This document shows, piece by piece, positions 7,250 to 58,303 of a stretch of 64,000 bases of DNA; position 1 is the first letter of the stretch; each line of letters starts with the position of its first letter. The translations under genes were made by a program, and so were the position numbers. This stretch comes from Candidatus Limnocylindria bacterium (GTDB taxonomy: Bacteria > Chloroflexota > Limnocylindria > QHBO01). The notes beneath the pieces are model-generated. The model was not told the DNA's origin. It ran no database searches and worked only from the letters and a program-made list of their open reading frames with translations. The stretch spans positions 4,590 to 68,589 of the forward strand of contig DASSCI010000039.1 in the NCBI GenBank assembly GCA_035697845.1, given 5' to 3'.

Positions 7250-7345
7250 ATGCAGACCCTTCGCGCATCCGCGATCGCGCTTCCCTTCATCGGGCTGGCA
7301 GTGCTGATCGGCGTCCTATCGATCCTGCTCGCCTCTCCTCGCTGA
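7250..7345 (+). CDS. Possible 31-aa hydrophobic small protein (MQTLRASAIALPFIGLAVLIGVLSILLASPR)
   Basis: Strong SD GGAGGTG sits 6 nt upstream of the ATG. A single predicted TM helix. Lies in the divergent intergenic region between HK and saccharopine-DH-like gene. Confidence 0.25.
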   Translation: MQTLRASAIALPFIGLAVLIGVLSILLASPR

Positions 7346-7483
7346 CTCGCTGGTATCATCCGCTCGGCGCCACCGAGCCAGTACGGATGAGGCCCCTTTT
7401 CCACTGATTCGGTAGGCTCCCGGCACTCGAGATCCTGTTGCGCAGACGCGTGCCCCACGTCGGAACACGCACCCTGGTGATTC

Positions 7484-11055: not shown

Positions 11056-11532
11056 ATGACGATCCACACCCCCATCGAGACGCGTGGCTCGGGCATCCCG
11101 GCCTGGGTCATCGGTCTCACCGTCTTCGTCCTGCTGGTCGGGGGCGTCTACCTCGCCTCCAACCTGGCGGGCGAGAATCCGGCCTTCGCCATTCCAGGCG
11201 CCAGCGCGCCAGCTCCCGAGGGCAGTGCCGGCGCCGATCCCGCCGTCGGCGAGCAGCTCGTCGGCTCGGTCACGCCGGCATGCACCGCCTGCCATGGCGC
11301 CGACCTGAGCGGCTCGGGCAATTTCCCGAGCCTGCACGGGGTGAACGACGGCCCGGTCAGCGAGAACCTCCAGCAGCTGGCCACCGACCACCCCGACGAT
11401 TGGATTCAGCTCTGGATCGACGGCACCACGCCCGAGACCGAGGGCCTCGACCGCGGCGGCATGCCAGCCTTCGGCGAGCAGCTCTCGCCGGACCAGATCG
11501 ACTCGATCGTCGCCTACCTCAAGAGCCTTTAG
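11056..11532 (+). CDS. Membrane-anchored mono-haem class I cytochrome c
   Basis: N-terminal TM (IGLTVFVLLVGGVYLA) and a single CTACH haem-binding motif. C-terminal half is characteristic of cyt c (PAFGEQLSPDQIDSIVAYL). Confidence 0.75.
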   Translation: MTIHTPIETRGSGIPAWVIGLTVFVLLVGGVYLASNLAGENPAFAIPGASAPAPEGSAGADPAVGEQLVGSVTPACTACHGADLSGSGNFPSLHGVNDGPVSENLQQLATDHPDDWIQLWIDGTTPETEGLDRGGMPAFGEQLSPDQIDSIVAYLKSL

Positions 11533-18099: not shown

Positions 18100-18414
18100 T
18101 CATTCATCGGTCTGGTCCTCATCCGTGCTGATTATCCGAGTCTGCGGCTTCGCGATGCCGGTCTGGCGGCCCCTTCCGCGCCGCCGGTCGGCGAAGAAGA
18201 CGCGCAGCAGGAAGACGCTGGTCATGCTGACGAAGAAGAGCAGGAACAGTGCTGCAAAGAGCAGGACCGCCAGCAGCCAGACCGGCCAGTTGAACGTGAA
18301 CAGCCCGATCGGGATGAGGAAGAGCAGGATCGCGAACAAGATCGCCTGTGTGATGAAGCATCCGAATCCCGGGCCCTCGTTCGGGTCGAGGTCCTCGTTG
18401 TAGCGAACTGACAA
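18100..18414 (-). CDS. Small membrane protein (2-3 TM), hypothetical
   Basis: Hydrophobic core ILFAILLFLIPIGLFTF...LLAVLLFAALFLLFFV with charged tails. Confidence 0.4.
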   Translation of the reverse strand: MSVRYNEDLDPNEGPGFGCFITQAILFAILLFLIPIGLFTFNWPVWLLAVLLFAALFLLFFVSMTSVFLLRVFFADRRRGRGRQTGIAKPQTRIISTDEDQTDE

Positions 18415-18513
18415 GCCGATTCCTCAAGGAATTTGGCGGGGCGTGGGCGGTCCAGATCGTCCCACATCCGGCTCGTCCACGCTCCTGCCGTGCCTGGCCG
18501 TTGATGAGCGCGA

Positions 18514-18586
18514 GGTAAGCGTCCGGTAAGCGTCTGGTAAGGCCGACCGTGCTATCACAGTGTTCAAGAGTCTTGAACACTCGTGG
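18514..18586. repeat. Composite intergenic element copy 1: 3 x 11-bp tandem repeat (GGTAAGCGTCY) + spacer + 21-bp palindrome GTGTTCAAGAGTCTTGAACAC
   Basis: Direct inspection of the sequence. The reverse complement of the same ~70-bp architecture occurs at 56959-57029. Confidence 0.7.
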
Positions 18587-18616
18587 GACCGTGCTGCCCG
18601 GGAGCAGGAGACTCGA

Positions 18617-19944
18617 TCAAGACCGATACGTCACGCGCCCATCGGCGACGGTGAGCCGTACGACGCCGGGCAGCTCCATATCCACGAGCGGCGAATTGGC
18701 CGATGCAGACCCCAGCGTCGTCGCATCGACCCGCCAGCCAGCAGCCGGATCGAAAGCGACGAGATCGGCCCGCTCGCCGGTGCGCAATCCGCGCTTCTCA
18801 CCAACGATCGCCGCCGGCCGCGTCGACAGCGCTGCCAGGAGCGCCGACAAGCTCAGGCGTCCGGCCTCGACCGTGAGAAGGCCGACGCTGAGGGCGGTCT
18901 CGAGGCCGATGAGCCCGGGTGCGGCCTGCGCGAACGGCACCAGCTTGCTCTCGGCCGGGTGCGGAGCATGGTCGGTGGCGATGGCGTCCACCGCTCCGTC
19001 GGCGACCCCTGCCAGCAAGGCCATCGCGTCGTCGCGTGAGGCGAGCGGCGGGTTCACCCGGCAGCGACCGTCGTAGGCAAGCTCCGAGCGCGGGTCCGCC
19101 TCTTCCCAGGCGAAACGGCGCGAGCCGGCGACCCATTCGTCGGTGAGCGCCAGGTGGTGCGGCGTCACGTCGCAGGTCACCGCCACGCCGCGCGCTTTCG
19201 CGGCGCGGACAGCGTCAAGCGAGCGCGCCGTGGACAGGTGGGTGAGGTGCAGCCGTGCATGCGCCGCCTCGGCCAGAGCGATGTCGCGCTCGACGATCGC
19301 CACCTCGGCCTCCGGTGGCCAGGGAGCCAGGCCGAGGCGCGTGGCCGCCGGTCCTGCGCGCATGACGCCGCCCCCGGCGACGGACGCATCCTCGGCATGC
19401 TCGAACAACGGCAGGCCGAGCGGTGCGAGTCGCGCGAGCAGGTCGGCTGTCAGCGCGGCCGATGGAACGGCCGCCCCGTCATCGGACACGCCGATGGCGC
19501 CCGCGCGCCCCAATTCCTCGACCGCGGTGAGCTCGCCTCCCGCGCGGCGCCGGGTTGCCGCAGCGATGACGCGCACGCGCGCCGACGCCGGTGCCGCGAC
19601 CACCGCACCAACGGCATCGGCCGAGTCAAGCGGCGGATCGGTGTTCGGCATGGCGCACACCGTGGTGAATCCGCCGTGGGCGGCAGCGCGGGTGCCGCTG
19701 GCAATGGTCTCCGCCCCGCTGATGCCCGGCTCTCGGAGGTGAGCGTGCAGATCGCAGAAGCCGGGCGCGATGACCCAGCCCGATGCATCGATCCGCTCGG
19801 CATCGTCGGCCGCCTCGACGACCAGCCCGTCGCGCACGGCGATGTCCCTCTCCTCGTCGCTGCCGTCCGACGGGTCGATCACCCGGCCGCCGACCAGCAC
19901 GAAGGTGGCGGGTCGATCGGTCAGCAGGCCGAAACGAGCGTCCC

Positions 19945-19948
<4 letters not shown>
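18617..19948 (-). CDS. pyrC: Dihydroorotase
   Basis: Metal-binding motif DLHAHLREPG and amidohydrolase-family similarity. Overlaps the pyrB stop. Confidence 0.85.
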
Positions 19949-27063: not shown

Positions 27064-27582
27064 ATGGGAGCCGACACCGTGAACCTTGGCAGCACTCTTC
27101 GAGGAATCGCCTTTGCCATTGGCGGACTGCTCGTCCTGGCGGGCGTGGCGTTCGCCACCAGCGACCGGGGAACCGATGACGTCGCCGGTGCCTCGCCCAG
27201 CGCCCCGGCAGTAGCCACCTTCGGCGGCAGCGTCAGCGCCGATCCGACTGCGAGCGCCAGCGCGGAAGCCGGCGCCAGCGCCGATTCCGCGGCGACCGCC
27301 AGCGGGGCCCCATCGGCCACTGCAGACGCCACGGCCAGCGCGGATCCGAGCGCCAGCCCCGAGACAGCGGCATTCGGCGCGGCGTCGCCGAGCGCATCAG
27401 GCGACGACCATGGCGGCATCGACAATTCCGGTCCGGGCAACGCCGAAGACGACGACGACGAGGACAACTCGGGCCCCGGCAACGGGGATGACGACGACCG
27501 CGACGACAGCTCCGGTCCGGGCCACGGCGGCGACGACGATGGGTCGGACGACGACAGCTCCGGGCACGGCAGCGACGACTGA
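27064..27582 (+). CDS. Secreted/membrane-anchored low-complexity protein with acidic D-x-SGPG repeat tail
   Basis: N-terminal TM/signal (IAFAIGGLLVLAGVAFA) and an Ala/Ser-rich linker. C-terminal repeats are DNSGPGNAEDDDDEDNSGPGNGDDDDRDDSSGPGHGGDDDGSDDDSSGHGSDD. Confidence 0.5.
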   Translation: MGADTVNLGSTLRGIAFAIGGLLVLAGVAFATSDRGTDDVAGASPSAPAVATFGGSVSADPTASASAEAGASADSAATASGAPSATADATASADPSASPETAAFGAASPSASGDDHGGIDNSGPGNAEDDDDEDNSGPGNGDDDDRDDSSGPGHGGDDDGSDDDSSGHGSDD

Positions 27583-33528: not shown

Positions 33529-33921
33529 ATGAACGATATGGACAGATTCCGGCGGCGACCGCCGATGGAAGGGTTCTCGCGCCCGGGTTCGCTGGGCGGC
33601 GAGGCATACGATGACGACTCAGTGGAGGGTCACATGATGGACGACGATCGCACCCAGGACATCGACACCGAGGGCCACGCCTTCGTCCGCCGCGCGGATG
33701 AGAGCGACGACACCGAGGGTCACGCGTTCACCCGTCGCGCGGACGACAGCGACGATACCGAGGGCCACGCCTTCACCCGCCGAGCGGATGATGACGAGGA
33801 CACCGAGGGCCACGCGTTCACGCGTCGAGCCGACGACGAGGACGACACGGAAGGTCACGCCGGCTGGCTGAAGGCCACCGACGAGGACGACACAGAGGGC
33901 CACGTCTCCAAGATCAAGTAG
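33529..33921 (+). CDS. Small acidic tandem-repeat protein: six copies of a ~15-aa unit D-[DE]-x-D-T-E-G-H-A-F-[TV]-R-R-A-D
   Basis: Protein is MNDMDRFRRRPP...DTEGHAFVRRADESDDTEGHAFTRRADDSDDTEGHAFTRRADDDEDTEGHAFTRRADDEDDTEGHAGWLKATDEDDTEGHVSKIK. The 45-bp DNA repeats differ at synonymous positions. AGGAGG RBS upstream; the start may be ATG 33529 or 33538. Confidence 0.6.
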   Translation: MNDMDRFRRRPPMEGFSRPGSLGGEAYDDDSVEGHMMDDDRTQDIDTEGHAFVRRADESDDTEGHAFTRRADDSDDTEGHAFTRRADDDEDTEGHAFTRRADDEDDTEGHAGWLKATDEDDTEGHVSKIK

Positions 33922-47880: not shown

Positions 47881-50434
47881 GCGCGCGGTGCAGGAAGGCC
47901 GCCATCTGCTCACGGCTCACGGCACTGCCCGGGCAGTAGGTGGACGGACCACATCCGCGCGTGATCCCGCTCGCGGCGAGCGCGTTGATGTCGGCCTGGT
48001 GCGGCGAGGCCGAGTCATCGGTGAAGAAGTCGGTCCCGGACGCCGGGAGCCTGAGAGCCCGCACCAGGAACGAGGCCATCTCCTCGCGCGTGACCGCCCG
48101 GTCCGGGCAGTAGACGCGCCACCCGCAGCCGAGCGTGATGCCTGCCGCCGCCAGGGCGTTGATGTCGGCCTGGTGCAGGCCCGCGTCGTCGTCGAAGTAG
48201 TCGGTGCCCGCACCCGGCAGGCCGAGCGCGCGGACGAGGAACGAGGCCATCTGCGCACGAGTCACGGCGTCCGTGGGGCAGAACATCCCGCTTCCGCAGC
48301 CGATGGTGATGGCGCGCTGCGCGATCCACAGGATGTCGTCATAGAACGGCGATCCGGCGGCATCCGAGAAGGGGCTCGTCATGGCCCACGCCAGCCCGAA
48401 CGGCTCCTCGGCAGCGTTGAAGCGCGGCTGAAGGATCTCGATCCGCATCACTCCCGTGGCTGCCGCCGAGATGTCGACCACCTCGTACGGGTTGTCGTAG
48501 CTGATCGAGAGGCCCGGTGCGCCGCTCGGCATGGTCACGCGCAGGTCGAGATCGGCGGTGAGCACGTCCGCCTTCCCCAGGTTCGTGCCCGAGGTATGGC
48601 TGCTCCAGGCGAGGGCGACCCGAACCTGCTGGCCGGCCACGACCGGGACCTCCTGCACGATCGACTCGCCGGGATGCGCGGCGCCGATGCGGTAGCCGCC
48701 CCATGGACCGTTGCCGTTGACCAGGATCCGGTTCGACCACACCGCCGACGCCGTTCCGACGCCCTCGTGATCGTTGTTCGCGCCGCCGCCGGGCAGCGGC
48801 GTGCGGCGAAGTGCTCCGGCCATGAGGATGGCGCGCGTCCCTTCCGGCCACACCGCCAGCGACGGTGCACGAGCCAGCAGCTGCGCCGCCAGGCCGGCGA
48901 CGATCGGGCTGGCCACGCTGGTGCCATCGCCCGAGATGCCGTTGGCGGTTCGCACGCTCACCGCGGGAGCGGAGAGGTTCGGCTTGTTGTAGTCGCCGTG
49001 AGGGTTCCATGCCGTACCGCCCAGGTCGACGTAGTTCGCGCCGTTGACGCCGGGCCGATACCACAGGATGTCGTCGGCGGTGCCGGCGGAGTTGCGGTCG
49101 TCGATGCCGCCGACGGTCAGCACGTTGTATCCGGTGCCCGGCGAGACGACGTTCCAGTTCCCGAAGGTGGTGAAGTTTCCGGACGAGGCGACGACGAGGC
49201 GGTTGCCCTCCCAGCCGATCGAGTCGAAGTAGCGACGCGCCTCCTCCGCGCCCTGCGCGGTGTCCTGGCCGATGCTGGCGTTGAGGATGTCGGCGTTCCC
49301 GCCGCCCGGTGCAACGGCCCAGTCCGCGGCGGCGATGATGGCCCGGTCGTAGGCCAGGCTCGGCGTGTAGCCACCGGTCCCGGCCGAGACGATGACCGCG
49401 CCGGGAGCGACGCCGCCGTACGTCCCGTTCTGGCTGGCGATCGCACCCGCGACCCAGGTGGGATGCCCGCCGACGACGGTCGTTCCGCTGGTCGAATAGC
49501 TGGCGGCGACCTTGCCCGCCAGGTCGCCCGAGTTCGAGACGTTGTGGTACTCCACGATGCCGACGCGGACGCCGCTGCCCTGGTCGCCGCCGTCGCCCGT
49601 CCAATCGGCGCCGATCGCCGGGCCGGCGGAGGACATCTGCGCCTCCCATTGCTCCTCGAGGCCCAGGCTCAGGACGTCGGCGCGCGCGGCGAGCCCCGCC
49701 ACCGCCGGGGCGGGCACGTCCAGGAACACGAGCGGGGCGGAGGTGCTGGCGTAGCCGATGCCGCCGCCGGCGGCCTCCACCGCCGGACGGAACGCGTTGG
49801 CGGCCGCCTCGTAGGTCGCCCGCCGCGCCTCCCACAGCTCGGCGCGCAGGGCGCGGACCTGCTCGATCGATTCGGCCATTGGCCGGCCGGCGACCCAGGT
49901 GATCTCCGGATGTGCGTCGCGCACCGCGGCCTCCGCCGCGGCCGGATCGGCATCCAGCCAGACGGCCACGCGCAGCGAGTCGGGCTTGCCGCCGGCGACG
50001 GCTGCCTGGAGTGCGGCATCCGCCTTCCGCTCCAGCGCGGGGAGATCCTTGGCGGCTGCCGCCGAGCGCTCCTCGCGCAGGCCCGCTCCGGCCGTGACGC
50101 CGGCCGCAGGATCGCTGTCGACGGCGACGATCTCACCGGTCGTCCGATCCAGGAACTTCCCGGCCCAGAGCGTCGCATCGGAGTGCTCGACCGCGGCGTC
50201 GCGTTCGTAGAGCAGCTCGAAGTCGTTCGGCGATCCGCCGCGCGTCTCGGCCAGATGGCGTGCCGCAGCCGCAGCTGGCGGCTCCGCGGCACGCGCCGTC
50301 CCGCCGGGCACCAATACCGTCCCACCCACGACCAGCGAAATCACGAGCGCCCCCCCACGGGCGAGCGCGCGCGGTCTGCGACTGCGCACTTTCAGCCTCT
50401 CTCGTTCGTAAGACGCCGTATGACAGTCTTGCAT
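47870..50434 (-). CDS. Secreted S8 subtilisin-like peptidase with three C-terminal Cys-containing SLH-like repeats
   Basis: Signal peptide after MQDCHTASYERERLKVRSRRPRALARGGALVISLVVGG. S8 Ser motif GTSVASPIVAG. Three ~60-aa C-terminal repeats follow the pattern F.DD....H..DI..LA..GIT.GCG...YCP...VTR.QMA.FL.RAL.LP. Confidence 0.75.
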   Translation of the reverse strand: MQDCHTASYERERLKVRSRRPRALARGGALVISLVVGGTVLVPGGTARAAEPPAAAAARHLAETRGGSPNDFELLYERDAAVEHSDATLWAGKFLDRTTGEIVAVDSDPAAGVTAGAGLREERSAAAAKDLPALERKADAALQAAVAGGKPDSLRVAVWLDADPAAAEAAVRDAHPEITWVAGRPMAESIEQVRALRAELWEARRATYEAAANAFRPAVEAAGGGIGYASTSAPLVFLDVPAPAVAGLAARADVLSLGLEEQWEAQMSSAGPAIGADWTGDGGDQGSGVRVGIVEYHNVSNSGDLAGKVAASYSTSGTTVVGGHPTWVAGAIASQNGTYGGVAPGAVIVSAGTGGYTPSLAYDRAIIAAADWAVAPGGGNADILNASIGQDTAQGAEEARRYFDSIGWEGNRLVVASSGNFTTFGNWNVVSPGTGYNVLTVGGIDDRNSAGTADDILWYRPGVNGANYVDLGGTAWNPHGDYNKPNLSAPAVSVRTANGISGDGTSVASPIVAGLAAQLLARAPSLAVWPEGTRAILMAGALRRTPLPGGGANNDHEGVGTASAVWSNRILVNGNGPWGGYRIGAAHPGESIVQEVPVVAGQQVRVALAWSSHTSGTNLGKADVLTADLDLRVTMPSGAPGLSISYDNPYEVVDISAAATGVMRIEILQPRFNAAEEPFGLAWAMTSPFSDAAGSPFYDDILWIAQRAITIGCGSGMFCPTDAVTRAQMASFLVRALGLPGAGTDYFDDDAGLHQADINALAAAGITLGCGWRVYCPDRAVTREEMASFLVRALRLPASGTDFFTDDSASPHQADINALAASGITRGCGPSTYCPGSAVSREQMAAFLHRALTR

Positions 50435-54684: not shown

Positions 54685-55431
54685 TCAGCGCACGTCCCGC
54701 CGGCGCGCGACGTCATCGGCGCCGTTGAGCAGGTCGCTCACGAACGCCAATGGTCGCCAGCGCGGAAGGGTGGGCTGCTGGCGCGGAAGCAGCTCGAGGA
54801 TCCCCTCGCGCACCGCGCGCTCGAGCGCAGCTCTCGCCTCGCGGCCGCGGGTCGCACCCGCCTCGATCGGCGCACCGAACCGGATGTCGACGCGCTTGCG
54901 GAGCCAGAGGTCCGTGCTGCCGACGATCGCGCATGGAACGACTGGGACCGCGGATGCGGCGGCGAACGCGGTCGCACCCTCCTCGAACGGCAACAGGGAG
55001 GTCTCGTCGAAGCCGATGCGCCCCTCGGCGAAGATGCCGAGCACGCCATCGGCGTCGAAGACTCGCCGGACCGCCCGAACCGCCGACGTCATGGTGGTCC
55101 CGGCGGGGTCGTACGGGATCATGCCGCCGAAGAAGGCCATGATCCTGTTCTTGAAGCCGCGGCTGAAGTCGGCCTCGCGCGGCCCGAACCAGGTGATGCG
55201 CGGCTCCATCGGCGTGACCGCGATCACGAGCAGAGGGTCCCAGCCGTTGTGGTGGTTGGCGACGAGCTGAAACGGTCCCGCGGGCCAGTTCTCGAGCCCG
55301 CTGACGCGGACGTCGAACAGTGGCCGGACCAGCGCGCGAACGAGCCAGCGCATGAGCCGGTAGCGCGGCGTCACGGACACGCTCAGCTCGCGCGGTCCCG
55401 TGCGGCGGACGCGATCGGTGACGGCGTTCAC
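54685..55431 (-). CDS. 1-acyl-sn-glycerol-3-phosphate acyltransferase family protein (PlsC-like)
   Basis: HxxxxD motif NHHNGWD and an FAEGRI motif. Confidence 0.75.
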   Translation of the reverse strand: MNAVTDRVRRTGPRELSVSVTPRYRLMRWLVRALVRPLFDVRVSGLENWPAGPFQLVANHHNGWDPLLVIAVTPMEPRITWFGPREADFSRGFKNRIMAFFGGMIPYDPAGTTMTSAVRAVRRVFDADGVLGIFAEGRIGFDETSLLPFEEGATAFAAASAVPVVPCAIVGSTDLWLRKRVDIRFGAPIEAGATRGREARAALERAVREGILELLPRQQPTLPRWRPLAFVSDLLNGADDVARRRDVR

Positions 55432-56825
55432 GCCGCCACTGCCCGTTGTTCGTCCGCGCGCGACGGGCTTCCCGCACGGACCGGCTCACGAACGCGGCGC
55501 AGCGCCAGCGCCCCGAGCCCGAGCTCGAGGGCCATGACGACGAACAGCGCGCGGAAGCCCAGCTCGGCGGCCACCGTCCGATCGGCGATGAAGAGGGCCA
55601 CCGCGAAGGTGATCAGTCCGCCGATGGTCGAGCCGATCGGCCCTGCGCTGGCGACGGCGATGTTGCTGATGCCCATGTATCGGCCCGATGCCGCCTTGGG
55701 AATGATGTCCGTCATCAACGCCCAGTCGACGCCGAGGAAGACGCCGGTGCAGAGCCCGATGGGCACCGCCGCCGCGAGCACCATCCAATAGGCGGGCGCG
55801 AACGCCAGCATCAGTCCGCCCACGGCGCCGAAGCCGATGGCGACATACAGGACCGGCTTGCGGCCGATTCGGTTCGAGATCCGCCCGCCCGGCACGGAGC
55901 TGATGAGCGCCGCGGCAAGCATCAGGACGAGCACCGGGAAGCTGGCGCCCTGCGCCTCGTCCGGCCCCATGCGATGAGCGTTCTCCAGGTAGAAGACCGC
56001 GAACGCCTGGAGCGTCACGAGGCCGGTCAGCACGAGCAGGCGGCTGACCATGACCCACACGAAGTCCTTCTCTTCGAGGATGTCCGTGCCCCATGCCGAC
56101 TTTGCGCGCTCGAGGAGGCCCAGCTCATTGGGCGGTGCCGGTCGGTCGGGGACCCAGATGACGGTGATGAGCATGGTCACCACCTCGATGAGACCGATGG
56201 TCACGAACAGCCCGAGCGTGATTTCCGGGAAGCCGAGGACGCCCGGCAGGACGGTGATGAACAGGATCGCCAGGCCCGGCCCGAGCAGGTTGCCGGCGAT
56301 GTTGGCGCCGCCCAGGAGGCCGGATGCGAGCCCGACCTGGTGCGAGGGCACGAGGTCCGGGACGTAGCCCTGGTAGGGGCCCTGCGCGAAGTTGCTGCTG
56401 AACTGGAGGCACGCGACCGCGATGAGGAACGGCCAGTACAGCTCGTTCCAGAAGGCCCACGCAAGGAACGCCAGGAACACGAGGTCCATCAGCGTGCCGG
56501 CCACGATGAACGGCTTGCGCCGCCCGAGCCGATGCTGGGTTCGGTCGCTGATGGCTCCCATGGTCGGCTGCACGACGATGGCGATGAGCACCCCGGCCGT
56601 GGTGATGGCGCCGACGGCGAGTCCAGCCAGCGGGTGGTTCGAGTTCCCGAGCACCGACTCCACCAGGCGCGGGATGACGCTGAAGGTGAGCGCTCCCATC
56701 AGGGTCGTGATGGCCAGCCAGTAGGCGGTGACCGCCAGGAGCCGCCCGGTCGACAGCTCGGCCTTCGGCCGGCCGAACTCGTCGCGGTCGTCCGCAGCCG
56801 TCGCAGGTGCCGCCGATTCGAGCAT
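55428..56825 (-). CDS. MFS transporter
   Basis: 12-TM topology with MFS loop motif GRRKPF. Start set at MLESAAP (the track ORF starts upstream, inside the repeat element). Confidence 0.7.
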   Translation of the reverse strand: MLESAAPATAADDRDEFGRPKAELSTGRLLAVTAYWLAITTLMGALTFSVIPRLVESVLGNSNHPLAGLAVGAITTAGVLIAIVVQPTMGAISDRTQHRLGRRKPFIVAGTLMDLVFLAFLAWAFWNELYWPFLIAVACLQFSSNFAQGPYQGYVPDLVPSHQVGLASGLLGGANIAGNLLGPGLAILFITVLPGVLGFPEITLGLFVTIGLIEVVTMLITVIWVPDRPAPPNELGLLERAKSAWGTDILEEKDFVWVMVSRLLVLTGLVTLQAFAVFYLENAHRMGPDEAQGASFPVLVLMLAAALISSVPGGRISNRIGRKPVLYVAIGFGAVGGLMLAFAPAYWMVLAAAVPIGLCTGVFLGVDWALMTDIIPKAASGRYMGISNIAVASAGPIGSTIGGLITFAVALFIADRTVAAELGFRALFVVMALELGLGALALRRVREPVRAGSPSRADEQRAVAA

Positions 56826-56958
56826 GCCGTGGCCTCGTCGTGGTGTGGTGCGCAGCCTACGGCCGCGCGTTGGCGAGCACCATGGGTCACCGGCACTGCG
56901 GCCCGAATGCGGGCGGCTTGCTCCAGCCTTCTGGCGCCTCGAGGGCAGCGCCGTGCCG

Positions 56959-57029
56959 CGAGTGTTCAAGACTCTTGAACACTGTGATACCACCGGCCGC
57001 TTACCGGCCGCTTACCGGCCGCTTACCGG
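56959..57029. repeat. Composite intergenic element copy 2 (reverse orientation): palindrome GTGTTCAAGACTCTTGAACAC + spacer + 3 x CGGCCGCTTAC
   Basis: Reverse complement matches the architecture at 18514-18586. ~30 bp (GAGTGTTCAAGACTCTTGAACACTGTGATA) is identical between the two copies. Confidence 0.7.
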
Positions 57030-57058
57030 TCCCTATCGGCCGCGTACCCTGAGCGCTC

Positions 57059-58303
57059 ATGTCGACCGATCCGGCGGAAGGCCGGCTCATCGTCCTGCGC
57101 CATCCCGACCTGCGTCGCTACCTGACGGCTCGCTTCATCGCGTCCATCGCCACCCAGGTCCAGACCGTCGCCGTCGGCTGGCAGGTCTTCCGGGCCACGG
57201 GCGACCCCTTCGACCTGGGCCTGGTGGCGCTATCGCAGTTCCTGCCCTTCGTGCTGCTCATCCTGCCGGCCGGACATGTCGCCGACCGATACGATCGGCG
57301 CCGCATCCAGCTCGTGACGTACGTGCTGCTGGCGGCCTGCGCCGCGGCGCTGTTCGGTCTCGCGCTGTCCGGAAACATCGATACCGGGCCCGTCTTCGCC
57401 GTGATGGTGCTGTTCGGCACCGCGCGCGCCTTCAATCACCCCGTCGGCCAGGCGCTCCTGCCGAACCTGGCCCCGATCACGCTGTTTCCTCGCGCCGTTG
57501 CCGTCAACTCGTCGCTCGGTCAGGTCGCCACCATCGCGGGGCCGGCGATCGGCGGCGCGCTGGTCCTGTTCGGAGAGCAGGTGGCGTTCGGGCTCTCGCT
57601 CGTGCTGCTGGTGGCCGCGGTGGTGCTGGTCGCAGGGCTGCGCGGAGGTGGTCGCACCGAAGCCTCGACCGAACCGGTGTCGTGGGCGGCATTGCTCACG
57701 GGCGTCAACTTCGTGCGCAGCCGTCCGATCGTGCTTGGCTCGATCTCGCTCGACCTGTTCGCGGTCCTGTTCGGCGGGGCGGAGGCGCTGCTGCCCATTT
57801 ATGCCGGTGAGATCCTCGATGTTGGACCGGTCGGCCTGGGCATCATGCGGGCCGCTCCGGCGGTCGGTGCCGGCGTCCTCGCGGCAGTCGTGGCTGTGCG
57901 CCCCATCCGGCGCAACGTGGGCAGATGGATGTTCGGCGGCGTCATCGTGTTCGGGATCGCCACCATGCTCTTCGGCGTGTCGACCAGCTTCCCACTGAGC
58001 GTGGCGGCGCTGGTCGTGATGGGGGCCGGCGACATGGTCAGCGTGTACATCCGCCACCTGCTCGTGCAGCTCGAGACGCCCGATGCGATCCGGGGTCGCG
58101 TGAGCGCGGTCAACTCGGTGTTCATCGGCGCATCCAACGAGCTCGGTGAGTTCGAGTCGGGCATCACCGCGTCGTGGTGGGGGATCGTCCCGGCCGTTGT
58201 CGTCGGCGGAGCGGCGACGCTCGCGGTCGCCGCGACCTGGACTCGCGTCTTCCCGGTTCTGCGACGCCTCGACCGTTTCCCCGAGCCTGAGGACGTGCCC
58301 TAG
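57059..58303 (+). CDS. MFS transporter (EntS/MFS_3-like)
   Basis: 12 TM and a DRYDRRR loop motif. Confidence 0.8.
   Translation: MSTDPAEGRLIVLRHPDLRRYLTARFIASIATQVQTVAVGWQVFRATGDPFDLGLVALSQFLPFVLLILPAGHVADRYDRRRIQLVTYVLLAACAAALFGLALSGNIDTGPVFAVMVLFGTARAFNHPVGQALLPNLAPITLFPRAVAVNSSLGQVATIAGPAIGGALVLFGEQVAFGLSLVLLVAAVVLVAGLRGGGRTEASTEPVSWAALLTGVNFVRSRPIVLGSISLDLFAVLFGGAEALLPIYAGEILDVGPVGLGIMRAAPAVGAGVLAAVVAVRPIRRNVGRWMFGGVIVFGIATMLFGVSTSFPLSVAALVVMGAGDMVSVYIRHLLVQLETPDAIRGRVSAVNSVFIGASNELGEFESGITASWWGIVPAVVVGGAATLAVAATWTRVFPVLRRLDRFPEPEDVP

Follow-up and report, generated by a model that had tools for sequence, protein, structure and literature searches.

The stretch of DNA analyzed here, referred to below as the window, is 64,000 nt of the Candidatus Limnocylindria contig DASSCI010000039.1 (GCA_035697845.1), and at two intergenic sites it carries a composite element in which 11-bp direct repeats accompany a palindrome. 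One copy lies between pyrC and a small membrane open reading frame (ORF), and the other, in the opposite orientation and with the reverse complement of the same architecture, lies between divergent genes for major facilitator superfamily (MFS) transporters. The initial annotation had reported both the composite and its promoter-proximal setting, and both hold. The two copies belong to a larger family of cassettes which, judged by sequence comparison, is best explained as Limnocylindria specific, composite, and cis-regulatory, and one branch of this family forms the start of a GntR-family regulator gene.

Architecture of the two window copies

Three 11-bp direct-repeat units of copy 1 (GGTAAGCGTCC, GGTAAGCGTCT, and GGTAAGgccga) occupy positions 18514 to 18546 on the forward strand; two units of the triplet first described are complete, but the third keeps only GGTAAG. 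The 12-nt spacer that follows, CCGTGCTATCAC (18547 to 18558, forward strand), includes a degenerate unit, GCTATC, and, just before the palindrome, a TAnnnT-like hexamer position that reads TATCGT, TACGCT, TAAGCT, or TACCGT in other copies. The palindrome itself, AGTGTTCAAGA-G-TCTTGAACACT (AGTGTTCAAGAGTCTTGAACACT), is perfect over 23 bp (18559 to 18581) rather than the 21 bp given at first, and it sits in a 31-bp sequence (18553 to 18583, the reverse complement of 56959 to 56989; estimated earlier as about 30 bp) that is identical in the two copies and holds a palindrome of the general form AGTGTTCAAGA-S-TCTTGAACACT. Eleven nucleotides past the palindrome, on the side away from the repeats, is a box, GCTGCCCGGG (18593 to 18602, forward strand), with GCTGCCC at 18593 to 18599, which is homologous to codons 7 to 9 of the GntR gene in family F5 described below.

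Copy 2 has the corresponding parts in reverse: the box as GGGCAGC, the reverse complement of GCTGCCC (56943 to 56949 on the forward strand), a perfect 23-bp palindrome (56961 to 56983) with C as its center base on the forward strand, and, on the reverse strand, a spacer with GATACC and repeats (56984 to 57048). The repeats comprise three perfect GCTTACC units (56999 to 57005, 57010 to 57016, and 57021 to 57027) and two degenerate ones (57032 to 57038 and 57042 to 57048). Both 11-bp arrays are detected by Tandem Repeats Finder (TRF), which counts 5.3 units of period 11 at 56992 to 57048 in copy 2, degenerate units included. Pairwise alignment shows that the likeness of the two copies spans about 110 bp and reveals GCTGCCC as a third module, which the earlier description did not list. 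A chance duplication can be dismissed, with no palindrome match in 100 dinucleotide-preserving shuffles and a shared 31-mer expected only about 1e-9 times in 64 kb. The element is AT-richer (55 to 61% GC) than its surroundings (70.0% GC for the window), as had been noted for the palindrome.

Genes flanking the window copies

The gene upstream of copy 1 is pyrC (18617 to 19948, reverse strand, with its stop at 18617), whose homologues are named dihydroorotase in Candidatus Limnocylindria. Downstream is a hydrophobic membrane ORF of 104 amino acids (18100 to 18414, reverse strand) that has no Pfam match and is syntenic at three related loci (L093, L094, and L095). Between copy 1 and this ORF, an extended −10-like motif, GGATGTGGGACGAT (18456 to 18469, reverse strand), is conserved at the same three loci; possibly an internal promoter of the pyr cluster, it is kept even in L095, which lacks the cassette. 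Copy 2 is flanked on its box side by an MFS transporter gene (55428 to 56828, reverse strand; Pfam MFS_1, 2e-43) and on its repeat side by a second transporter gene assigned by Pfam to MFS_3/MFS_1 (57059 to 58303, forward strand). A −10-like hexamer, TACCCT, can be read at 57045 to 57050 on the forward strand, 8 nt before the MFS_3 ATG at 57059; it would constitute a leaderless-type promoter and place the last repeat unit of copy 2 at the −35 position.

A multicopy cassette family in Limnocylindria

We scanned GTDB species representatives with TGTTCAAGANTCTTGAACA and also scanned metagenome contigs; every family member was recovered by an exact palindrome match. The GTDB scan yielded 34 loci, of which 22 are in two Candidatus Limnocylindria soil metagenome-assembled genomes (MAGs), SMAG_U2317 (12 loci) and SMAG_U2040 (10 loci); apart from L014 and L020, the other loci are chance matches of higher AT content. 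About 12 further Limnocylindria contigs, from soil, came from the metagenome scan. The element was initially taken to be two-copy, and nhmmer does find two in the window, but related MAGs carry 10 to 12 or more loci each, and the copies fall into about 12 orthologous families. Two loci (L003 and L015) are orthologues of copy 1 and one (L025) is an orthologue of copy 2, which makes the source of the window a third genome, closely related to these.

Most copies share one module order and spacing: box, palindrome, spacer, and then two to six units of consensus GGTAAGCGGCC. Each unit has about 7 conserved and 4 variable nucleotides in 11-bp phasing, the period being exactly 11 in 29 of 39 spacings. 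No additional or decayed copy turned up when an nhmmer profile was run against the window and about 250 kb of related loci, a search of low statistical power, and viral contigs contain no matches to the element. The modules also occur in tandem. At L028 (3717 to 3869) there are four tandem 40-bp units, each with a GGGCAGC box and a left palindrome half, and only the last completes the palindrome; the orthologue L021 has a single such unit, and the L028 array is a recent tandem expansion of half-sites about four helical turns apart. In the orthologue of copy 2, the GGGCAGCGCC box is tandemly duplicated (L025, about 7340 to 7360).

A GntR regulator gene begins inside the cassette

In family F5 (L006, L017, L035, L070, and L076), a GntR-family gene begins within the palindrome. 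The right arm reads TTG AAC ACT and continues as CAA TGG GCA GAA GCT GCC, so that the start codon and first ~10 codons (MNTQWAEAA) are made of the palindrome right arm and the GCTGCC box. At two further loci (L077 and L056), a 29-bp partial tandem duplication recreates the N terminus as MNTQWGEAA, the start codon there being an ATG 25 nt past the palindrome. The encoded protein has a GntR winged helix-turn-helix domain (PF00392), a weak FCD match, and a conserved N-terminal extension of about 17 residues before the DNA-binding domain. Its nearest solved structures are PdhR and then NanR, and its best NCBIfam similarities are to NanR (1.2e-15), GlcC, and PdhR, all below the family cutoffs. By these similarities, the F5 regulator is a FadR-subfamily GntR protein related to PdhR, NanR, and GlcC.

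The upstream DNA of ten further homologues was fetched, giving a comparison of 12 regulator orthologues at 45 to 94% identity. The N-terminal motif (T/H)QW.(E/D)A.(I/N)F is kept in homologues down to 45% identity, and the upstream regions retain three RRTAAS units with an 11-bp period (two in L088), a gTGyGAG motif, and, across the start codon, an inverted repeat. The arms of this inverted repeat are AGTGTTCA..TGAACACT (TGTTCA..TGAACA) in the clade of the window. L084 and L085 have AGTGTGCA-N7-TGCACACT (TGTGCA..TGCACA), a compensatory change that replaces Asn with His in the protein, and L088 has CTTCA-N7-TGAAG, compensatory with respect to GTTCA..TGAAC. Across an alignment of 11 sequences, 81.8% of cells are paired, compared with 24 to 47% for slid partners, and in three pairs both members have changed; at one arm position there is a G.U-type asymmetry in L082, L084, L085, and L087. 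The Ala codon of the box is GCT in 10 of 11 regulator orthologues, yet only 5 to 7% of Ala codons are GCT, which points to constraint on the nucleotide sequence of the box even where it is coding.

Compared with F5, the dispersed copies have a box that is 1 nt shorter, and hence frameshifted and noncoding, and 5 to 8 extra nucleotides between repeats and palindrome, and they are closer to one another than to F5. The simplest history suggested by these differences is that the 5' control region of the regulator was copied once and that this copy then spread.

Conservation and the pyrC site

At third codon positions of flanking genes the two MAGs are about 84% identical, and an 18-base sequence would be expected to remain unchanged in about 0.84^18, or 4%, of pairs if neutral. 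Of 11 orthologous pairs, 9 retain all 18 specified palindrome bases; two unpaired loci may simply be missing from incomplete MAGs. The box region (89% identity between orthologues), the 20 nt adjoining the palindrome (93%), and the repeats (91%) all exceed the third-position value, yet no other part of the element evolves faster; orthologues differ by the gain or loss of whole 11-bp units, and the center base flips between C and G (L031 versus L008, and window copy 1 versus L003 and L015). All three modules are thus more conserved than neutral sites, which by this comparison is purifying selection. Every recovered Limnocylindria copy has the same 19-bp core, as recovery required, and the flanks of paralogous copies are only 55 to 76% identical.

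The pyrC site has diverged further in more distant relatives. The cassette is present with one arm change in L094 (pyrC 77% identical; from assembly ERZ28493267, which also holds the regulator locus L080) and with three arm changes in L093 (pyrC 80% identical). It is absent from L095 (pyrC 69% identical), where only 72 bp separate pyrC from the membrane ORF and where the promoter-like motif found downstream of the cassette in the other genomes is retained as GGATGTGGGACSAT. The cassette at pyrC is, on this alignment, an insertion, or a lineage-specific loss, of about 125 to 150 bp. No target-site duplication is visible when the filled site (window, L093, and L094) is compared with the empty one (L095), and the GGGCAGC box matches the inverted GGTAAGC units at about 8 of 10 positions without defined termini. 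L080 (about 9897) and L094 (about 11364 to 11390) each have a single A-for-T change at arm position 3, in opposite arms relative to the flanks, as if the palindrome had been inverted; this could reflect coincidence, ectopic conversion in either orientation, or selection.

Placement relative to genes and promoters

Placement was judged from ORFs filtered by GC content at third codon positions and from Pfam. Among the ~12 families, seven or eight lie between divergent genes, four or five between codirectional genes, and none between convergent genes, and every copy adjoins at least one gene start. Orientation to the downstream gene varies, with F1 and F4 facing one way and F7 and F11 the other, as expected of a binding site rather than a promoter or terminator. 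The flanking genes code for MFS transporters, an Na+/H+ exchanger, a class I/II aminotransferase, a PIG-L deacetylase, an O-methyltransferase, inositol monophosphatase, serine hydroxymethyltransferase (glyA), CbiQ, homoserine dehydrogenase (hom), XdhC, a flavin adenine dinucleotide (FAD) oxidase, pyrroline-5-carboxylate reductase (proC), a mannose-1-phosphate guanylyltransferase-type nucleotidyl transferase, and PurH (purH).

At several flanking genes the ATG is preceded, at a distance of 6 to 9 nt, by a TAnnnT hexamer, such as TACACT at glyA and TAGACT on both sides of the L021 copy. Such starts lack a Shine-Dalgarno (SD) sequence in the window (57045 to 57061) and at L008, L021, and L001, suggesting that this lineage commonly uses leaderless mRNAs. 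With leaderless promoters, the repeats or the palindrome would stand at about −30 to −90.

Several other identities for the element were considered and rejected. Sigma-70 promoter and intrinsic terminator scans of both window sites returned nothing, there is no terminator-like U tract or other terminator-like site, and Rfam at gathering and permissive thresholds identifies only tRNAs in the window and nothing at 12 related loci beyond chance-level matches. A sigma-54 promoter (GG-N10-GC) does not fit, as GGCACGGCGCTGCC and its relatives fall 1 to 2 nt short of the required spacing and the motif belongs to the coding sequence of the GntR gene; nor does an extracytoplasmic function (ECF)-type promoter (TGAAC-N17-GCCC), which would have no CGT-like −10 and an inconsistent orientation at F1 and F4. 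A single promoter reading from repeats toward box through the TAnnnT before the palindrome is attractive at many copies, but at F1 and F4 its transcripts would run antisense to pyrC and the PIG-L gene, respectively, and the GntR gene itself has no such hexamer. An attP-like site with a core and arm-type repeats is contradicted by the conserved orthologous positions and by the viral contigs without matches. A small ORF from the palindrome TTG fails in the dispersed copies, where the box is frameshifted relative to the GntR gene, and a ZTP riboswitch at the purH and glyA copies has no Rfam match. None of the LexA/Cheo, CIRCE, HAIR, IdeR/DtxR, parS, KstR2, or dif motifs is known to match the element.

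Reduced copies near metabolic genes

Two families and one locus lack the full cassette. At F8, beside genes for VWA and luciferase-like proteins, the palindrome stands alone. At F10, the palindrome and one GCTTACC-like unit lie 27 nt upstream of a glcD-like FAD oxidase gene (TIGR00387, 2.7e-119, below the equivalog cutoff) that is divergent from the XdhC gene. At L014, the palindrome and box occur without repeats; they separate aceE from a gene encoding a protein with a weak match (E of ~1e-3) between its first 58 residues and the N termini of type II NADH dehydrogenases (NDH-2). The L014 contig (DATHTR010000132.1) is labeled Candidatus Angelobacter (Acidobacteriota); its AceE is 86 to 92% identical to Limnocylindria/Chloroflexota MAG proteins, and the contig is therefore probably misbinned. 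The glc genes are classic GlcC targets. The targets of Escherichia coli PdhR include the pyruvate dehydrogenase complex and Ndh (PMC7660256). The aceE, NDH-2-like, and glcD-like neighbors fit these target types, whereas most other flanking genes are unrelated housekeeping genes.

Resemblance to known operators and repeats

The dyad and the GGT-containing repeats of the cassette resemble published sites of GntR-family proteins. NanR of E. coli binds (GGTATA)x3 cooperatively as three dimers, through its N-terminal extension (PMC8012715). The cassette likewise has three or more GGTA-containing direct repeats in promoter DNA and a same-subfamily regulator with an N-terminal extension; it differs in its 11-bp period (the NanR repeats are closer together), in its unit (GGTAAGC rather than GGTATA), in having a 23-bp palindrome and a GCTGCC box, and in being dispersed at a dozen or more loci. 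The YtrA operator of Bacillus subtilis is AGTGTA-13 bp-TACACT (PMC8060467, citing Salzberg 2011). YtrA shares with the cassette the outer dyad AGTGT...ACACT and the occurrence of the site before the regulator's own operon and at other loci, but its spacing is AGTGT-N15-ACACT rather than AGTGT-N13-ACACT, and it belongs to another GntR subfamily, without an FCD domain. The PdhR box is AATTGGTnnnACCAATT, with the core GGTnnnACC (PMC7660256). The cassette resembles the PdhR and GlcC systems in its homologous regulator, its copies at aceE/NDH-2-like and glcD-like genes, and the GGT of its repeat units; unlike them it has no GGTnnnACC dyad, and most of its flanked genes are not known PdhR or GlcC target types.

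As a repeat family, the cassette invites comparison with the pneumococcal BOX elements, the bacterial interspersed mosaic elements (BIMEs) and repetitive extragenic palindromic (REP) sequences of E. coli, and the Correia elements of Neisseria, short modular intergenic repeats of which some carry protein-binding sites or promoters. Like these, it is multicopy, modular, and intergenic, and it combines a palindromic core with internal units that vary in number. It differs in having about a dozen copies, in being strictly promoter-side, and in being homologous to a regulator 5' region, coding bases included; REP and BIME sequences number in the hundreds and lie mainly at gene 3' ends or between convergent genes, as opposed to about a dozen copies per MAG and none of ~12 families between convergent genes. 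The repeats also share an architecture of 7 conserved and 4 variable nucleotides at an 11-bp period with the direct-repeat boxes of OmpR/PhoB-type proteins, as in PHO boxes and other sites of winged-helix response regulators.

Interpretation of the cassettes

We put at about an even chance the reading in which the cassettes are composite operators of the FadR-subfamily GntR regulator that have been spread by copying. Among the interpretations considered, the most likely role of the cassettes is as binding sites that would put otherwise unrelated genes under that regulator, and we infer both the binding protein and the transcriptional effect. The suggestion in the initial annotation that the palindrome is an operator gains indirect support: conservation within the element is strongest in the palindrome, which is promoter-side everywhere, overlaps the start of a GntR gene with compensatory changes, and resembles GntR operators, as do the repeats. 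A role for the cassettes as operators accounts for the promoter-side placement, the independence of orientation, the stand-alone palindromes, the conservation, the linkage to a regulator, and the aceE and glcD copies. It is also plausible, given the 7-plus-4-nt units, the 11-bp phasing, and their retention in all regulator orthologues, that the repeats are a second binding array.

In such a system, regulator dimers would bind the palindrome AGTGT-N13-ACACT as the main site, and the phased GGTAAG repeats would be an auxiliary array, possibly bound cooperatively as by NanR. As the cassettes lie just upstream of core promoters or overlap them, their occupancy would modulate the flanking genes according to the regulator's ligand, in all likelihood a 2-hydroxy- or 2-oxo-acid. 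Bound at the gene that encodes it, the regulator would cover that gene's ribosome-binding site and start codon, as in autoregulation, and the family would have grown by copying of the cassette into other promoter-side intergenic sites.

Several observations weigh against the cassettes being operators of this regulator. The GntR gene is absent from the window, and most flanking genes form no obvious single pathway. The canonical FadR-subfamily consensus TNGTNNNACNA, or GGTnnnACC (the TGGT-N3-ACCA operator), is absent from the cassette. The identity of the palindrome among paralogues is partly an ascertainment effect, because copies were found by exact match, and the pyrC copy has one and three arm changes in the two more distant genomes. 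A site for a protein explains neither why whole cassettes are shared nor what the GCTGCC box does: regulons typically evolve their sites in situ, whereas here whole cassettes of about 110 bp are homologous, as in a mobile repeat. Finally, the four G.U asymmetries at the regulator gene fit an RNA hairpin better than a symmetric DNA site.

In a more specific history, which we regard as less likely than not, a regulon was built by copy-paste of the autoregulatory cassette (repeats, palindrome, and start codon with about 10 codons that double as a cis element) into a dozen unrelated promoters. Such a mobile operator cassette would lack transposase hallmarks, and its palindrome identity would be kept by coevolution with the protein. 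The homology of whole cassettes is what one would expect if the cassettes were a selfish or neutral dispersed repeat of the REP, BOX, or miniature inverted-repeat transposable element (MITE) type, spread by some transposition or recombination mechanism, with the palindrome as a hairpin for a mobilizing enzyme or subject to hairpin self-correction and the GntR N terminus exapted from an old insertion. A MITE-like element had been proposed for the window copies, and part of that proposal fares well: the element is a multicopy sequence family, it is present or absent at an orthologous site (the empty pyrC site in L095), the homology of whole cassettes extends into paralogue flanks (55 to 76% identical), the dispersed copies are closer to each other than to the GntR copy, suggesting serial copying, the modules are prone to tandem duplication and 11-bp indels, the inverted box and repeat units are weakly like terminal inverted repeats, and the center base flips between orthologues. 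On the other hand, neither a target-site duplication at the filled versus empty pyrC site nor clear terminal inverted repeats were found, and no partner transposase or REP-associated tyrosine transposase (RAYT) was seen in about 250 kb of flanking sequence, without a systematic search. The copies number only about a dozen per MAG and occupy the same positions in both MAGs and the window genome, all modules are more conserved than third codon positions, no copies lie between convergent genes or in viral contigs, and the retention of the N-terminal peptide and the GCT codon at 45 to 50% identity indicates that the version at the regulator gene is old and constrained. We regard a selfish or neutral repeat as unlikely.

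Still less probable, in our judgment, is that the palindrome acts as RNA, as a hairpin that would sequester an SD-like AGG/GAG and the UUG start in the GntR mRNA, the dispersed copies serving as stabilizing, processing, or pausing hairpins. Stems of −10 to −17 kcal/mol are predicted in most orthologues, the arm changes are compensatory, with one pair showing four G.U wobbles that are sense-strand specific, an SD-like purine run lies in the loop region 4 to 6 nt before TTG, and a palindrome folds alike from either strand, which fits the mixed orientations. But there is no Rfam match and no terminator-like U tract, several copies are upstream of probable leaderless starts and so outside those mRNAs, and the conserved repeats and GCTGCC box are left unexplained. 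Moreover, constraint on structure alone predicts wobble or compensated variants, whereas the arm sequence is the same across the ~12 paralogous families, as ascertained by exact match. Similarly doubtful is recognition by other proteins, with an OmpR/PhoB-type response regulator on the 11-bp repeats, an unrelated dimeric factor on the palindrome, or both, the GntR gene then being one more target. The 11-bp-phased 7-plus-4-nt units match the PHO-box-type architecture, and the palindrome differs from the canonical FadR-subfamily consensus; yet no response-regulator gene is linked to any copy, and the complete cassette is most tightly linked to the GntR gene, among orthologues at 45 to 94% identity. 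Furthermore, GGT-containing units and AGTGT..ACACT dyads are both documented types of GntR-family sites (PMC8012715, PMC8060467, PMC7660256). Control by the GntR regulator and these alternatives are not mutually exclusive.

Limnocylindria is an abundant, uncultured class of soil and freshwater Chloroflexota. Bacterial regulons are usually thought to grow by in situ evolution of short sites, and the spread of ready-made binding sites by repeats is, to our knowledge, well documented in eukaryotes but rarely so in bacteria. Dispersed intergenic repeats and GntR operators are both known kinds of element; the combination is unusual in being low-copy, selected, promoter-side, and homologous to a regulator's control region including coding bases, such that a unit of about 110 bp carries two operator-like motif types and a regulator coding fragment to a dozen or more promoters. 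If the regulator binds these cassettes, they would clearly exemplify a regulon enlarged by duplicating an autoregulatory region and would offer a first handle on transcriptional control in Limnocylindria.

Other sequence features

The same 19-bp palindrome is found in Nannocystis-like Myxococcota (L020 at 7940, L046 at 3077, and L065 at 1773), where it is conserved at a distance of 16 nt before a gene for a Gly/Ser-rich lipoprotein. An additional GTGAACACT half-site precedes it, and its flanks show no relation to the Limnocylindria cassette; perhaps it serves a related factor as an independent operator. TRF also reports tandem repeats elsewhere in the window, apparently inside coding regions, at 33663 to 33904 (45/90 bp), 27420 to 27539 (42 bp), and 47955 to 48311 (171 bp, 2.1 copies).

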